Part shown: in pieces, positions 3,453 to 20,172 of the stretch
Numbering within the stretch: position 1 is the stretch's first letter
Layout: each line of letters opens with the position of its first letter
Source of the DNA: a phage
Direction: 5' to 3' (one strand)
DNA length: 64,000 nt
Sequence record: PZ019084.1
The notes under the pieces: generated by a model
Seen by the model: only the letters and a program-made list of their open reading frames with translations
Databases searched by the model: none
What the model was told of the DNA's origin: nothing
Translations under genes and position numbers: made by a program

Positions 3453-3599
3453 TTAAAAATTCTCGTTAGAGATTAAAACTCGGTAGTCACGTTCTTCTGA
3501 ATTTCATCTTCTTTCGACAGATCTCTCAGTTGTAGACTACCACGTAGAATTGTTCGGTTAACTTATTATTCCGACACCCAATTCATATTATTATTTATA

Positions 3600-3935
3600 T
3601 CACTTATAAAGACACGGAATAGCTTTATAGTGACAGGTAACAAATTTTTGTTTAATTTCTTTTGGCTGCTTAAGACCCAGAGCTACAAAAGGATGCGGAA
3701 CGTTTCGAATTTGACCAACTGGAAGAGAAGTCAAATCACCAACTTCGCAGAAACCTTCAGGAACATCAGGACCAACAGAGTGAATTACACACAGTTCGGG
3801 AACTTCACCTTGAACACGTTTACCGATAATAAGTCCTGATTCTGTAACTTCTTCATCACCGGCTTGTGCAGGTTCAGAAACTAAAATAACATATTCACCG
3901 ACAGCACGAATTGGTAGCTGTTGTACTTCAGACAT
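3600..3935 (-). CDS. 31: gp31 co-chaperonin (GroES analogue for capsid folding)
   Basis: 111 aa, same length as T4 gp31; adjacent to rIII. Confidence 0.85.
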
Positions 3936-13250: not shown

Positions 13251-15515
13251 TCATAATTTACAGGATGAACAATCTTCAGCTTTTGGAGTTTCTATTTCAT
13301 AATCATCAGTACCGGAACCATCACGAGTATTATGATAATAGAAGTTTTTAATGCCATAATACCATCCGTATAGCATGTCATCAATCATTACAGACATTGG
13401 AACCTTTCCTTTTGGAAAAATCTGCGGGTCATAATATGTATTAGCTGAAGCTGATTGACATACCCATTTCAGCATAATAGCTACCTGCGTAAGATAAGGT
13501 TTATTGCCTTTCTTAGCTAATTTCCACGTATAATCATAGAGGTCTATGTTATGCTCAATATTGGGCACGACTTGATTAAAGGAACCCTCTTTTGATTCTT
13601 TAACAGAGACTGGTCCACGTGGAGGCTCGATACCGTTTGTACTGTTAGAAACTTGGGAAGATGACTCACATGGCATAAGTGCTGATAATGTGCTATTACG
13701 GATGCCAAAGAGCTTAAGGTCTTCCCGCAGCGACGACCAGTCACAAACGTATTTTGGAGCTGCGATTTGGTCAATCTTTTTATTGTACCAGTCGATAGGT
13801 AATTCGCCTCGAGACCAACGAGTGTCTGAATAATATTCGCAAGGTCCTTTTTCTTTGGCGAGCTTAATGGATGCTTTAATGAGTCCATACTGTAATCTCT
13901 CAAATAGTTCATGTGTTAAATCGTTAGCATCTTCATAAGAAGCAAAATTACTTGCCAACCAAGCTGCATAGTTAGTAACACCTACACCGAGATTTCGACG
14001 CTTTTTAGCTTTTTCTGCTTCAGGAACTGGATATCCTTGGTAATCCAAAAGATTATCAAGAGCACGAACTTGGACTTCTGCCAATTCGTTAATTTTATCT
14101 TGGTCTTGCCAATCGAAGTTATCTAACACAAATGCAGATAACGTACACAATCCAATTTCAGCATCAGGACTATTCACGTCATTTGTTGGAATAGCAATTT
14201 CACAACACAAGTTACTCTGACGAATAGGTGCCTTTTCACGAATAAATGGAGTATAGTTATTCGTATTATCAATGAACTGTACATAAATCCTTGCTGTTCC
14301 TGATCGTTCAGTCATGAGCAATTCAAACAGTTCACGGGCTTTAATGCGCTTTTTACGAATATTAGGGTCTTTTTCTGCGGCTTCGTACAATTCACGGAAA
14401 CGGTCTTGGTCTTTAAAATAAGAATAATAAAGTTCGCCACCCATTTCATGTGGACTGAACAGAGTAATGTAGTCGTTCTTTCCAAAACGTTCCATCATCA
14501 AATCATTCAGCTGGACGCCATAATCCATATGACGGATACGGTTTTCTTCTACACCTTTGTTATTTTTCAAAACGAGAAGATTTTCAACTTCCAAATGCCA
14601 AATAGGATAATAAGCAGTAGCAGCGCCGCCACGAATTCCGCCTTGTGAACATGATTTAACAGCAGTCTGAAAATGTTTCCAAAAAGGAATAACACCAGTA
14701 TGACGCACTTCACCTGTGCCAATCTTAGAACCTTCAGCACGAATCATACCAACGTTAATGCCAATTCCAGCGCGTTTGGAGATATATTCAACAATTGAAG
14801 CAGAAGCCTTATTGATAGACTTCAGCGAATCACCTGCTTCAATAACAACGCATGAACTAAACTGTCGAGTTGGAGTACGACAACCAGCCATAATAGGAGT
14901 TGGTAATGAAATCTGTCGAGTAGATACCGCTTCATAAAAACGAATAACGTGTTTTAGTCTATCAACAGGTTCATCTTGATGCAGTGCCATTCCAATAGTC
15001 ATAAATGCAAACTGTGGAGTTTCATAAATTTGACCAGTGGTTTTATCTTTAACTAGATATTTTTCTTTTAATTGCATCGCCCCGGAATAAGTAAATTCCA
15101 TATCCCGCTCGTGCTTAATTTTTGATTCTAAAAATGTAATTTCTTCTGCTGAATATTTTGACAACAATTCAGGGTCATATTTACCTTCATTTACACAGTA
15201 AGAAATATGGTCAATAAATGAACGTGGTTCATATTGTCCGTAAACATGCTTACGAAGAGCAAACATTAAACAGCGAGCGGCTACGTATTGATAATCAGGC
15301 TCTTCAACTGAAATAGAATTCGCAGCAGCCTTAATTACAATGGTTTGAATGTCATCAGTTGTCATTCCATCACGGAGATATGATTTAATATTTTCATATA
15401 ATTCATAAGGATCTACAGATGTTCCTTCGGCTGCCCAAGATAAAACTTTAATAATTTTTTGCGGGTCAAAGCTCTGAGAAACACCACTACTTTTGATAAC
15501 ATTAATTAATTGCAT
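13251..15515 (-). CDS. nrdA: ribonucleotide reductase large subunit
   Basis: 754 aa, same as T4 NrdA; class I RNR features including the C-terminal Cys pair. Confidence 0.95.
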   Translation of the reverse strand: MQLINVIKSSGVSQSFDPQKIIKVLSWAAEGTSVDPYELYENIKSYLRDGMTTDDIQTIVIKAAANSISVEEPDYQYVAARCLMFALRKHVYGQYEPRSFIDHISYCVNEGKYDPELLSKYSAEEITFLESKIKHERDMEFTYSGAMQLKEKYLVKDKTTGQIYETPQFAFMTIGMALHQDEPVDRLKHVIRFYEAVSTRQISLPTPIMAGCRTPTRQFSSCVVIEAGDSLKSINKASASIVEYISKRAGIGINVGMIRAEGSKIGTGEVRHTGVIPFWKHFQTAVKSCSQGGIRGGAATAYYPIWHLEVENLLVLKNNKGVEENRIRHMDYGVQLNDLMMERFGKNDYITLFSPHEMGGELYYSYFKDQDRFRELYEAAEKDPNIRKKRIKARELFELLMTERSGTARIYVQFIDNTNNYTPFIREKAPIRQSNLCCEIAIPTNDVNSPDAEIGLCTLSAFVLDNFDWQDQDKINELAEVQVRALDNLLDYQGYPVPEAEKAKKRRNLGVGVTNYAAWLASNFASYEDANDLTHELFERLQYGLIKASIKLAKEKGPCEYYSDTRWSRGELPIDWYNKKIDQIAAPKYVCDWSSLREDLKLFGIRNSTLSALMPCESSSQVSNSTNGIEPPRGPVSVKESKEGSFNQVVPNIEHNIDLYDYTWKLAKKGNKPYLTQVAIMLKWVCQSASANTYYDPQIFPKGKVPMSVMIDDMLYGWYYGIKNFYYHNTRDGSGTDDYEIETPKAEDCSSCKL

Positions 15516-15832
15516 AAGTCCTCAACTTGAAAATCGTCTTTAAACAATCGGTTAACTATATGAGCTATTATATCACCATGACACGGCTTTGGTTTACATG
15601 TGCATCCTAGCCTCATTCCACGTAAAGGCTCTAAATGTGCTTTAGTTATTTCTCCGGATTTAATTCGACGTATAAAATCTTTTTTGAATAATTCAATGGC
15701 AGCCTCCCGGCTGCCAGCATCTTTACCGACGTAATTTCCCCAAAATGTACCACGGTGAATATTAACATCAAAGTCGGATTTATATTTATTCACTACCTGG
15801 CATAGACGGCCCGCGCGGTAATAATTCTTCAT
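15506..15832 (-). CDS. hypothetical protein with CxC..PCHGD motif (nrdA.1-like position)
   Basis: 108-aa ORF; possible metal-binding motif [12 protein letters not shown]. Confidence 0.5.
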
Positions 15833-16061
15833 ATTGTTGTTCCGTTAAAACAGTAATATCATAGTAGCAATCAGAAGAAGTTTTAACTGTGGAAATTTTA
15901 TTATCAAAATACTCACGAGTCATTTTATGAGTATAATACTTTTTACCATAAATGATAATAGGTTGTTCTGGTCCTGGAACTTCTAACTCGCTTGGATTAG
16001 GAAGTGTAAAAAGAACGACACCAGAAGTATCCTTAAATCGTAAAATCATATATCCTCTCAA
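15786..16061 (-). CDS. hypothetical protein (nrdA.2-like position)
   Basis: 91-aa ORF overlapping the next ORF by 47 nt in another frame. Confidence 0.45.
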
Positions 16062-16072
16062 TTAAATTAAAA

Positions 16073-16933
16073 TTACACCGCCATCTTTCCTTTCAAGACA
16101 CCGTGGGACTGATAATCTTTGAGAACGAAATCCCGTGCTGTCATATATTCAGTTAACCAATACATTTGAGTTTCAGTATCGCATTGACTGAATCCATTAG
16201 GCCAATTAATACTAAGTTTGCATAGATCCATAGGAGTTCTATTTAATATCTCTTTGCATTGCTCAATATGGTTAGAATAAATGTGTGTATTACCACCCGA
16301 GAATACCAAATCGCCCGGAACTAGTTCACACATGTCAGCAACAATATGTAAAAGAGCAGCATAACTCGCGATGTTAAATGGAAGACCGAGGAAAACATCT
16401 ACCGAACGTTGATACCATTGTAGGTCAAGGTATCCGTTACGCACATTAAACTGATAGAACATATGACAAGGTGGTAATGCCATCTGCTTGAGTTCAGCTG
16501 GATTCCATGCCGACACAATTTGACGTCTATCATTGGGAAATGTTTTAATACGATTAACAACTTCTACAATTTGATCTACACCACCAAAATCACGCCACTG
16601 TTTTCCGTAAATTGGACCAAGTTCACCACTATGATAACCTAAGTCTTTGGCCTGGTTTTCGTAGTTTTCATCCCAAATTGTTTTTCCTGCAATTAAAGAC
16701 CCATGAGTACGTTGACGTAAATCATTTACGTTAGTACTTCCTGATAAGAACCACAATAACTCAGAAATACATGCATTCCAGGCGAGCTTCTTAGTCGTTA
16801 CTGCAGGAAAACCTTTAGTTAAATCCCAGCGTAATTTAGTACCGAACAAAGCAATTGTTCCTGTGCCTGTTCGGTCATCAGTTTCATAGCCATTTTCAAA
16901 AATGTCTTTAATTAAATCTTGGTATTGTTTCAT
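16073..16933 (-). CDS. td: thymidylate synthase, no intron
   Basis: 286-aa continuous ORF with classic ThyA motifs; T4 td carries a group I intron, absent here. Confidence 0.95.
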   Translation of the reverse strand: MKQYQDLIKDIFENGYETDDRTGTGTIALFGTKLRWDLTKGFPAVTTKKLAWNACISELLWFLSGSTNVNDLRQRTHGSLIAGKTIWDENYENQAKDLGYHSGELGPIYGKQWRDFGGVDQIVEVVNRIKTFPNDRRQIVSAWNPAELKQMALPPCHMFYQFNVRNGYLDLQWYQRSVDVFLGLPFNIASYAALLHIVADMCELVPGDLVFSGGNTHIYSNHIEQCKEILNRTPMDLCKLSINWPNGFSQCDTETQMYWLTEYMTARDFVLKDYQSHGVLKGKMAV

Positions 16934-16977
16934 TTAGTACCTTATATAAATTATAATACATTTTATGAAGCTAATAA

Positions 16978-17325
16978 TCAATACGGTTTAGCATCAAATT
17001 TTCTTTCGATTTCAGGAGTAAAATATAATTCTTTACCACGTTTGGAAAAACGACCAATAATATGATAATTATTCTCATCAAACGTGATATTGCCGATATC
17101 CATAGCTTTCAACCAAATATCGATATTTCTGTCAAGCTTTATATCAAAATTCCAATACGGAGAACTGTTACCAAAAATACTGCAAGCGGATTCAGTGAAA
17201 CAACTGCTATAAATTTTGTCTTTAGGAACTACTAATTGATAGACGCCTTTAATAAACTGAGGACCCTGCCATTTTGGTTGTTTTGCGTCTTTTTCTAATA
17301 GAATAGGATAATAATTAAAGTTCAT
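16978..17325 (-). CDS. hypothetical protein inserted between frd and td
   Basis: 115-aa ORF occupying a spacer that I recall as a direct frd-td junction in T4. Confidence 0.5.
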   Translation of the reverse strand: MNFNYYPILLEKDAKQPKWQGPQFIKGVYQLVVPKDKIYSSCFTESACSIFGNSSPYWNFDIKLDRNIDIWLKAMDIGNITFDENNYHIIGRFSKRGKELYFTPEIERKFDAKPY

Positions 17326-17344
17326 ATTTCCGCCACGCGTTATT

Positions 17345-18171
<827 letters not shown>

Positions 18172-18181
18172 ATTATTTTCC

Positions 18182-18424
18182 TTAAACAGACTTTTTCACA
18201 ATTTTCCAATCAGCTTTAAACTGATCAACGTCAGAATGATAAATCCAGAATCCTGCGCTTTCTCCATCCTCATAAAGAGGGCATCCATCGCATTCATCTT
18301 CCCATCCCATATCACGCAAAAGACGTTCAGCTTTTTCAACAAGTTCAGAATCTTTACCGATGATATTAAAATACCATTTACCTCTAACTTCTGAATCTTT
18401 AATGCTCTGACGTTGTAATCTCAT
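18182..18424 (-). CDS. hypothetical protein (frd.2-like)
   Basis: 80-aa ORF preceded by an early promoter. Confidence 0.5.
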   Translation of the reverse strand: MRLQRQSIKDSEVRGKWYFNIIGKDSELVEKAERLLRDMGWEDECDGCPLYEDGESAGFWIYHSDVDQFKADWKIVKKSV

Positions 18425-18449
18425 TTTATTCTCCTTAGTTTATAGGGTA

Positions 18450-18479
18450 ATAGTATCACACTACTACCCTTCTGTAAAC
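18450..18479 (-). promoter_or_regulatory. T4-type early promoter (GTTTAC-N18-TACTAT)
   Basis: Minus-strand motif match. Confidence 0.55.
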
Positions 18480-18844
18480 TACTTTTTGAAAGTTTTTCGC
18501 AAAAGTTCAATGATTTCATCTACATTGTTTTCGTCTACAATGCAGTGAATTTTTGTTACGCCAGAAACCTTGTCTTCGATTTCATCTTCTTCAGAAGTCG
18601 GTTCTTTATACTCACGAAAACAATGAAATTCATCTTCGCAGACGTTGAAGTAAAAATGCTTTCCATTGGCGCATTCTACGTGTTTTACTACTTTAAATCC
18701 ATCAGCAAAGAAAACTTCTTTAACTTCAAACCATCCGCCATTTTCTTGAATAGCTTTAACTATTAATGAATTAGAACGCGGGCGATAATTAATAAATGTA
18801 TCAATAAGTCTTGGAACAAGTTCGTACTTTTTATCAATATACAT
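18479..18844 (-). CDS. hypothetical protein (frd.3-like)
   Basis: 121-aa ORF. Confidence 0.5.
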   Translation of the reverse strand: MYIDKKYELVPRLIDTFINYRPRSNSLIVKAIQENGGWFEVKEVFFADGFKVVKHVECANGKHFYFNVCEDEFHCFREYKEPTSEEDEIEDKVSGVTKIHCIVDENNVDEIIELLRKTFKK

Positions 18845-18888
18845 TATGTTTTCCTCATTTTAATAGGGGCTTGATAGCCCCTCGATAA

Positions 18889-19140
18889 TTACTGTTCAAT
18901 CAATCCCATGTAAAATTCTGCATCTTCAGCATCCATACCATCACAGTATTCATTAGCCATAAATCGTTCAAGAACTTCTAAAGGACCTTCAATAACAATA
19001 GAAAAATTGCAATAATTGGGATCATCATGAATACTTGTGATACTAAGTTCAGGATAACGATTACGAATAATTTCTTCAATATATTCAAAATCAACGATGT
19101 CAATATCAACTTTAGCCATATTGTTTTCCTCTTTAATCAT
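18889..19140 (-). CDS. hypothetical acidic protein
   Basis: 83-aa ORF between an early promoter and a hairpin. Confidence 0.5.
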
Positions 19141-19162
19141 CAGCAGTATTGCCGATAGTTGT

Positions 19163-19182
19163 ATAGTACCACAGTATGCTTT
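19163..19182 (-). promoter_or_regulatory. T4-type early promoter (GTTTAC-N18-TACTAT)
   Basis: Minus-strand motif match with the conserved leader element. Confidence 0.55.
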
Positions 19183-19205
19183 GGTTGTAAACCGTTTTGT
19201 GAAAA

Positions 19206-19241
19206 AAATTTTGAAATAAAAAGGGGACCTCTAGGGTCCCC
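19206..19241 (-). terminator. rho-independent terminator downstream of gene 32
   Basis: GGGGACC/GGUCCCC hairpin followed on the minus strand by a U-rich run. Confidence 0.65.
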
Positions 19242-19263
19242 AATTAATTAGTAATATAATCTA

Positions 19264-20172
19264 TTAAAGGTCATTCAAAAGGTCATCCAGGTCCGTGTCA
19301 TCAGCACTAGATGAACTGCCAGAGCTTGAGCTCATAAAATCATCTTCAGTTTTTGTTTTGAAGTCATCAACATTAAATGCATCCAAATCATCAGCAACTT
19401 TATCAGCTTTCTTAGCGGCAGTCGCTGCGGCACCACCCATAGCAGCAGTTCCCATAACTTGACTGAACTTAGTGCTCAATTCTTCAAACGATTTGAATTT
19501 ATCTTTAGAAGTCATTTCAGAAAGGTCAACCATTTGTTCGAACAGTTCTTTCTGGAAAGATTCATCATCAATGTTTGGAATCGCAGATTGATTCAGGAAT
19601 TTAGATTCGTCGTAGTTACTAAAACCAGAAACTTGTTTAACTTTCAGTACAAAGTTAGCACCTTCCCACGGACAAGTTACATCAACCGGAGTTTCACCCA
19701 TTTCAACATCAACTGCAATCATTGCATTGATTTTGTCCCAGATTTTCTTGCCGAAACGGTATTTAAATACTTTACCTTCATTTTCTGGAGCAGCTGGGTC
19801 TTTTACAACAAGAATGTTAGCCCAGTAAGAAGTTTTACGTTTAACAAGACCGTATTCTTTATTGTCAGTGTTGTACAAATCATTTTTATTGATGTACTGA
19901 CATACTGGGCAAGAATCGTAATCACCGTGGGTAGATGAACAGTTTTCAATATACCATTTACCGTTTTTCTTGAAACCGTGATTTACAAGAATTGCGAATG
20001 GTGCTTGTTCATCATTTTTAGACGGAAGAAAACGAATTACTGCTTGACCGTTACCCGCATTGTCGAGTTTCAGTTTCCACTCGCCTTTATCTTCAGAAGA
20101 AAAACCACCTTTATTTCCAGCCAGTTTAGCCATTTGTGCAGCGAGTTCAGCAGTAGATTTACGTTTAAACAT
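19264..20172 (-). CDS. 32: gp32 single-stranded DNA-binding protein
   Basis: 302-aa ORF; [50 protein letters not shown]... matches T4 gp32 from memory; acidic C-terminal tail. Confidence 0.95.

Follow-up and report, generated by a model that had tools for sequence, protein, structure and literature searches.

A small gene conserved between frd and td in T4-like phages and its probable deletion in the T4 lineage

Why should a small open reading frame (ORF) lie between frd and td, two genes that are directly coupled in phage T4? The question is raised by a 64,000-nucleotide (nt) stretch of phage DNA (sequence record PZ019084.1; hereafter the window), in which an ORF of 115 amino acids (aa), here called gene A, occupies the interval between the genes for dihydrofolate reductase (DHFR; frd) and thymidylate synthase (TS; td). 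A first-pass annotation took this ORF for an extra insertion at a locus known for mobile elements. That part of the annotation is not supported by our comparisons, as gene A is the majority allele in the genus Tequatrovirus, and at least nine other genera carry homologues at the same position. Read from the sequences, the notion of an extra insertion is probably back to front, and the empty T4 junction would be the derived state.

Gene A spans 16978..17325 on the minus strand, with an ATG start and a TGA stop, and its product has a mass of 13.6 kDa, an isoelectric point (pI) of 8.5 and 20 aromatic residues (17%). Its upstream neighbour is frd (17345..17926, minus strand; 193 aa), an ORF with 95.7% nucleotide identity to T4 frd, and its downstream neighbour is td (16073..16933, minus strand; 286 aa). 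The first-pass annotation had described the main features of this arrangement well, namely a 115-aa ORF filling about 410 bp, the direct coupling of frd and td in T4, and a td gene without an intron. The gap at 16934-17344, from the td start at 16933 to the frd stop at 17345, measures exactly 411 base pairs (bp), with gene A starting 19 nt past the frd TGA and ending 44 nt ahead of the td ATG. In T4, the frd stop does overlap the td start in the sequence ATGA (L002 5110-5113), and td of the window is one continuous ORF that matches T4 exon 1 (549 nt) and exon 2 with the intron absent. The G+C content of gene A is 31.6%, compared with 38% in the neighbouring genes.

Judged by its conservation, gene A is a genuine phage gene. 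A tblastn search found the ORF in 581 phage records, T2, T6, RB3, RB14, AR1 and PP01 among them, and protein identity fell in the 90-100% range in 363 of these, with values of 94-100%. Ratios of nonsynonymous to synonymous substitution (dN/dS), calculated according to Nei and Gojobori, were 0.00 against CrRp10 (dN=0, dS=0.219), 0.01 against slur11 (dN=0.004, dS=0.534) and 0.03 against OLB35 (dN=0.033, dS=1.125), while frd gave 0.2-0.3 across the same genome pairs. Purifying selection on gene A is, by these values, very strong. The residues Q16, W19, G27, G91, K95 and G97 are invariant in the family, three of them within the motif IIGRFxKxG; K18 is frequent without being invariant, R92 and R96 are present in most sequences, and no His, Asp, Glu or Cys is invariant across the family alignment.

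The family itself is small and restricted to short proteins. An exhaustive HMMER search of 1.84 billion representative proteins returned 22 clusters, 20 of which are stand-alone proteins of 95-116 aa. The other two, long matches designated P0021 and P0023, do not belong to the family, having matched through short repeated profile stretches alone; P0021 is a reverse transcriptase according to Pfam and no relative of gene A. A search with a combined profile of A and its paralogue B, described below, found only stand-alone proteins of 113-148 aa and no domain fusion. Gene A matches the profile hidden Markov model of phrog_1928 (E=8.4e-36), with residues 4-111 aligned to profile positions 2-125 of 126, and the members of phrog_1928 are small proteins of T4-like phages that are all named 'hypothetical'. 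For phrog_1928 we found neither a Pfam or NCBIfam model nor a solved structure or publication, and a literature search on the 115-aa ORF likewise found no paper; a preprint on the trigger of bNACHT11 deals with other T2 proteins.

The position of gene A in other phages bears on its origin. Homologues with 26-63% aa identity lie directly after frd and before td in every genome inspected, and they occur in at least nine further genera of the Tevenvirinae (eight named genera and a Klebsiella phage without a genus in its record), the homologues of Karamvirus, Winklervirus and EcS1 being taken from hit tables only. In all 14 of the 14 IMG/VR loci that the family profile recovered, A follows frd and precedes td. 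The gene order is frd-A-td in Jiaodavirus Mineola, with overlaps of 17 and 8 nt, and frd-A-B-td in Kanagawavirus PEi26, Gelderlandvirus STML-198 and Moonvirus Moon. It is frd-A-B-C-td in Klebsiella phage Biddle_MM4 and in a metagenomic T4-like phage (L007), in which A is 63% identical to the window protein, and it is reversed to frd-B-A-td in Roskildevirus Cronus. The aa identities of A and Frd to their window counterparts are 63% and 50% in L007, 44% and 52% in PEi26, and 37% and 48% in Mineola. The divergence of A between genera parallels that of Frd, as expected if A descended together with its neighbours.

The companion genes B and C differ in their relation to A. B is an old tandem paralogue of 113-144 aa (hhalign probability 99.1%, E=1e-18) that also matches phrog_1928 and has an insertion of about 19 aa following a QKKW motif; it was located at L007 6332-6673, L005 2817-3173, L013 1748-2143, L014 1809-2156, L015 1787-2134 and L016 1059-1493. 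C is a basic ORF of 68-69 aa that belongs to phrog_9550 and is unrelated to A; it overlaps the frd stop codon at its 5' end and the td start codon at its 3' end. Copies of C are present in SHFML-26 (L008 1745-1951), fPS-90 (L009 1745-1951) and JS10 (L012 2001-2208), and at L007 6670-6879 and L013 2148-2354. Weak similarity to Aeromonas phage proteins of 157-161 aa was seen in BFVD, and a tblastn search with a B-type protein reached no Aeromonas phage.

Overlapping stop and start codons tie A to frd and/or td in Mineola, PEi26, L007, STML-198, Moon and Cronus. In the window this coupling is replaced by the 19-nt and 44-nt spacers. A Shine-Dalgarno-like GGCGG (17330..17334, minus strand) lies within the 19-nt spacer, 4 nt 5' of the gene A ATG, where it may serve as a ribosome-binding site, and the motif is kept in CrRp10, slur11 and the recombinant OLB35. 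A second Shine-Dalgarno-like motif, AAGG (16940..16943, minus strand), precedes td and may stand in for the ATGA coupling of td to frd in T4. It is well supported that gene A is a long-standing resident of the frd-td operon in the Tevenvirinae and is not peculiar to this phage. In most genera the slot holds an frd-A-(B)-(C)-td chain with overlapping stop and start codons, and the Tequatrovirus versions are reduced to A only, C only or nothing. Gene A is already catalogued as a hypothetical protein and is an ordinary member of the interval. The first-pass annotation had named a conserved frd-td gene with a known function as an outcome contrary to its view; the conservation across T-even phages is now evident, while no function is known.

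The three reduced versions are unevenly distributed within Tequatrovirus. Alleles were counted with junction-specific and chimeric queries against the phage collection, and the counts are approximate because RefSeq and GenBank duplicates are included. The A allele, carried by the window, T2 and T6, was found in about 349 records, with the td intron in 94 (about 27%), the latter being records with two match places for a chimeric query of ORF and intron. The C-only allele (for example in SHFML-26, fPS-90 and ACG-C40) accounts for about 148 records, 70 of them with the intron (about 47%), and the empty T4-type junction for 35, of which 33 have it. The two T4-type records that lack an intron match are short T4 sequence records, and all 33 genome records that reach far enough carry the intron. 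A strict association between loss of A and the td intron was considered and rejected, as about 94 records carry both A and the intron. T4 itself makes up many of the 35 T4-type records, and 31 of the 35 share at least 99% identity over 120 nt; within the genus, the A allele reaches a dS of 0.53. These counts show that the empty site is rare and nearly monomorphic and that the A allele is common and diverse. The slot is polymorphic, and no evidence was found that the ORF itself is a mobile element.

The borders of the empty junction bear on how it arose. Alignment of the junction across T-even relatives, which the first-pass annotation had proposed, gave the following result: T4 equals the window minus 415 bp, with flanks that are 94-97% identical right up to the gap, and T2 and T6 carry the ORF. 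The block missing in T4 (16928..17342, minus strand, or any equivalent frame within the repeat) contains gene A together with its leader and the spacer that separates it from td. One copy of the direct repeat TAAATGAAA lies across the frd stop (17343..17351, minus strand; TGA at 17347-17345) and the other across the td start (16928..16936, minus strand; ATG at 16933-16931). The repeat is exact over 9 nt, and when the next three bases are added the copies agree at 11 of 12 positions. The T4 junction, GTATATAAATGAAACAATACC, is the exact recombinant of the two copies. In addition, the first 150 nt of T4 td are 93-95% identical to A-type alleles, compared with 90.7% to C-type alleles. Taken with the allele distribution, this footprint is explained most economically by a deletion in the T4 lineage: the ATGA overlap would be the product of a young 415-bp deletion through recombination between the TAAATGAAA repeats of an A-type allele.

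A second direct repeat, TGGTTGAAAG (10 nt), occurs at 17400-17409 in frd and 17106-17115 in gene A (minus strand). It is at about chance level, and no known allele corresponds to recombination between its copies.

Several observations weigh against a deletion and would suit the opposite history, in which a coupled frd/td junction was ancestral in Tequatrovirus and an A cassette came in from another T4-like phage by illegitimate or short-homology recombination, duplicating TAAATGAAA. RB69, a Mosigvirus, shares the empty ATGA junction of T4, so that the empty state may be old or recurrent. T2-type A is uncoupled from frd, unlike A in other genera, and stands behind a 19-nt spacer beginning with ATGAAATAA, reminiscent of a vestigial td or C start. 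The probability that such a repeat would fall at both gene junctions by chance is about 1e-3 under base composition alone, or about 2e-3 when the observed frequency of TAA before ATG in the window is used, and the repeat could consequently be the scar or target duplication of an older insertion; some repeated 9-mer is expected by chance in an A+T-rich segment of 600 bp. Gene A is also lower in G+C than its flanks, and sideways transfer of cassettes is known at this slot from JS10 and OLB35, discussed below. Yet at least nine other genera have A-family genes at this position, with a divergence like that of Frd, and it is the A allele that is common and diverse. Outside the Tequatrovirus-type allele, itself also present in recombinant Mosigvirus records such as OLB35, no known donor exceeds 63% aa identity. 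We therefore consider an ancestral empty junction in Tequatrovirus unlikely. The two histories may also both apply, at different times, if an ancient re-insertion was succeeded by a young deletion in T4. The full account that we favour, and hold to be reasonably probable, joins a resident gene A, its deletion in T4, exchange of cassettes at the slot and an accessory role for A beside Frd and Td.

Exchange of cassettes is seen in two phages. In JS10, a Dhakavirus, the C cassette is 97.6% identical at the nucleotide level to the Tequatrovirus copy and lies inside clearly diverged frd and td flanks, with identity switching where the frd stop meets the C start and again where the C stop meets the td start; C is unannotated in this genome. 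Such near-identity despite diverged flanks points to a recent lateral exchange. OLB35, which is classified as a Mosigvirus, has a Tequatrovirus-like frd 3' end and A, and its Frd is 86.5% identical to that of the window compared with 60.9% for RB69, which marks it as a recombinant across genera. The two cases indicate that the conserved coupling junctions serve as recombination points for cassette swaps, including swaps between genera. A further peculiarity of OLB35 is a 2-nt insertion that changes TATAAATGA to TATAAAAATGA and moves the frd stop, giving an Frd of 205 aa (L010 894-1511) that overlaps the A start by 11 nt.

The td intron offers a possible route by which the deletion could have spread. 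I-TevI remains bound on the exon II side of its site, and co-conversion is skewed into exon I (PMC2988022). The frd-td junction lies about 550 bp away on the exon I side. Co-conversion in this direction points toward the junction, and it is possible that the empty T4 allele hitch-hikes with I-TevI-driven homing of the td intron. The spread of the deletion allele with the intron is only a lead, as the records are not phylogenetically independent. Compared with its T4 counterpart, td of the window is a recombination mosaic: identity is 94% over the first 150 nt and only 83% over nt 150-549, several small indels occur at the 3' end, and 16 of 70 compared positions differ from T4 in the region of the I-TevI homing site.

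Small-ORF cassettes in T4-type phages are known to be shuffled via PeSL (Arbiol et al. 2010, PMC2839356; Comeau et al. 2014, PMC4122927), and the slot resembles these systems in part. In both, recombination at short conserved sequences adds, removes or exchanges small genes of unknown function among close T4-type phages, which in the frd-td slot is seen as three alleles and as lateral transfer across genera. Unlike PeSL cassettes, the slot has no promoter and stem-loop flanks, with no terminator within 15400-19222; recombination there uses the stop/start junctions that couple frd and td, and the slot is located inside a conserved nucleotide-metabolism operon and not in a hyperplastic region.

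Another comparison is with the free-standing and intron-encoded homing endonucleases known from T-even phages (I-TevI in td, Seg and Mob; PMC2988022), since they share the neighbourhood of nucleotide-metabolism genes by the td intron site and show the same kind of presence/absence polymorphism between T2 and T4; the allele distribution at the slot may itself reflect I-TevI co-conversion. In the BASEL phages KarlGJung (Bas37) and AdolfPortmann the 115-aa ORF is labelled 'putative homing endonuclease', and the I-TevI homing site adjoins the locus. The statement of the first-pass annotation that the ORF has no recognisable nuclease or other motif proved accurate, however: the protein matched nothing in Pfam or NCBIfam at E values up to 1 and nothing in PADLOC, so that GIY-YIG, HNH, LAGLIDADG and PD-(D/E)xK domains were all missing from the Pfam and NCBIfam results. 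A Pfam scan of all 23 family members at E values up to 10 gave no family matched by more than one member, and searching PDB sequences with the A1 and A2 profiles produced chance-level matches alone. The protein also lacks invariant acidic, His or Cys residues that could be catalytic, is far smaller than these enzymes (115 aa is too short for a nuclease and a DNA-binding domain), is strongly constrained, and occupies a single fixed slot across at least 10 genera and the 14 IMG/VR loci where a homing gene would be sporadic. It is hardly credible on these grounds that A is a homing endonuclease, whether intact or as a remnant, and the same holds for a spurious ORF, which dN/dS values of 0.01-0.03 exclude.

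The names given to the ORF in databases are in conflict. Apart from the endonuclease label, 'putative glucose-1-phosphate adenylyltransferase' and 'putative dihydrofolate reductase' are in use, and none of these names has domain support in Pfam or NCBIfam. Differently named records include MZ501089.1 (L017 1201-1548), MZ501046.1, NC_054937.1, OR125554.1, MW749001.1 and OK272476.1, and in the 2003 record of T2 (AY310907.2) the ORF at 3525-3872 is unannotated.

What protein A might do can be approached through its predicted structure. Structure prediction, also proposed in the first-pass annotation, delivered a confident model without a significant structural neighbour. From an alignment of 18 sequences, AlphaFold2 gave a model with pLDDT 85 and pTM 0.78; an earlier model from four close sequences (pLDDT 61.5) was discarded. 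Beta strands make up most of the predicted protein; its only helix covers residues 68-76, and GRFxKxG is carried on a long C-terminal hairpin. The predicted order (strands at 6-12 and 27-34, short strands, the helix at 68-76, and strands at 86-96 and 99-104) is compatible with the topology of the oligonucleotide/oligosaccharide-binding (OB) fold, a five-stranded barrel in which the helix lies between strands 3 and 4. OB-fold domains, such as those of SSB/RPA, S1, HIN and telomere OB proteins, could accommodate this order of strands, a single helix and a long beta-hairpin, and the conserved aromatic and basic residues of A lie in the first loop and the hairpin. No significant structural neighbour was found in the PDB, where the lists of weak matches consist mostly of OB folds, and no significant superposition on known OB folds was obtained. 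Foldseek against viral models in BFVD returned only uncharacterised proteins of T4-like phages.

One interpretation is that A is a small nucleic-acid-binding regulator, for instance a translational repressor or coupler that acts on td or frd mRNA via an OB-like face. The enrichment of OB and S1 folds among the weak structural matches would agree with this, as would two loops in which aromatic and basic residues are conserved (W19, F93 and K95, with R92 and R96 in most sequences) and the basic nature of the protein. We nonetheless regard a regulator as very improbable: the idea is inference alone, no structural match reaches significance, and an Rfam scan of 15000-20000 gave nothing credible, with no conserved RNA element detected nearby.

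That the family has no invariant His, Cys or acidic residue speaks for a binding protein and not for a metal-dependent enzyme. We tentatively propose that protein A could be a dispensable, non-catalytic accessory of the Frd-Td module that binds a ligand or a partner, a guess that draws on its strong purifying selection, fixed position and translational coupling across genera, together with its dispensability. Within the phage thymidylate and deoxynucleoside triphosphate (dNTP) module of Frd, Td, NrdAB and their partners, both the operon adjacency of A and its translational coupling with module genes are conserved. Protein A would be a small beta-barrel with one helix, the binding face of which would comprise Q16 and W19 of the first long loop and G91, K95 and G97 of the IIGRFxKxG hairpin. 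It would be co-produced with Frd and Td via translational coupling, and could tether Frd to Td, or both to a dNTP-synthesising or replication complex. A more specific form of this proposal, which we consider quite unlikely, is that A and B are adaptors of a new fold that join DHFR to thymidylate synthase non-covalently or dock the two enzymes on a dNTP or replication complex. If this were true, A and B would be the stand-alone counterpart of the linker in bifunctional DHFR-TS enzymes, missed for decades because the model phage T4 had deleted A.

An accessory role beside Frd and Td also has points against it. What ties A to the two enzymes appears to be position alone, its loss in T4 and RB69 and its replacement by C mean that it is dispensable, and a patchy distribution is also typical of host-interaction or anti-defence genes. 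It is conceivable, if doubtful, that A is instead a host-directed accessory, either an anti-defence factor or an inhibitor of a host enzyme, that rides in an early/middle operon and is unlinked to Frd and Td. A is small, restricted to phages and an orphan (22 clusters and no fusions), it is present, absent or replaced within genera, T4 and RB69 manage without it, and its G+C content is low. On the other hand, its dN/dS of 0.01-0.03 is tighter than that of frd and shows no arms-race diversification, and its fixed position between frd and td, with overlapping codons in many genera, is not that of a variable island. No similarity to known anti-defence or counter-defence families, solved anti-defence proteins included, was found through PADLOC, PDB neighbours or BFVD, and a protein with a pI of 8.5 is not acidic and so unlike a DNA mimic. 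We consider a role as an accessory of the thymidylate/folate module more likely than an anti-defence role in an arms race.

Gene A is part of a run of minus-strand genes, in the order gene 32, frd.3, frd.2, frd.1, an 81-aa ORF, frd, gene A, td, nrdA.2, nrdA.1 and nrdA. A consensus scan found two sites upstream that resemble T4 early promoters (TTTACA, 17 nt, TG-TACTAT), at 19191 and 18478, and a terminator scan found no terminator-like site from there to td. Within 15400-19400 only one terminator-like site (19241-19223) was found; it follows gene 32 and precedes the 415-bp block by about 1.9 kb. The 44-nt spacer between A and td holds a putative promoter-like element (16948..16981, minus strand), which matches either a sigma-70-like consensus (TTGATT-17-TATTAT) or a MotA-box-like one (AGCTTCA, 12 nt, TAATTT), these being consensus matches only. 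Most of this element falls in a 31-nt segment that is missing from the OLB35 spacer.

Other small genes of the operon deserve mention. A second ORF absent from T4 (81 aa; 17926-18171, minus strand) lies between frd.1 (18182-18424) and frd, with its stop abutting the frd start. It matches phrog_3183 (E=2e-43) and no Pfam family, T4 has just a 71-nt gap at its position, and it is labelled hypothetical in CrRp10, SHFML-26, fPS-90 and slur11. Between td and nrdA (15506-16061, minus strand) are nrdA.2 (91 aa, TTG start, DUF5496) and nrdA.1 (108 aa, DUF4326), which overlap one another and nrdA; both are conserved small genes of the same operon with no known function.

Gene A is not a new kind of mobile element or system. 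T4, the reference for T-even biology, is the exception at the frd-td locus, and most of its relatives, T2 and T6 included, encode a constrained small protein between DHFR and thymidylate synthase, often together with a paralogue. This uncharacterised protein is probably non-catalytic, has no known fold relatives and is a candidate accessory of phage nucleotide metabolism, and the inconsistent database names 'homing endonuclease' and 'glucose-1-phosphate adenylyltransferase' can be corrected. The locus further provides a clean case of cassette loss and exchange at translational-coupling junctions, in which a deletion allele may spread with a homing intron.

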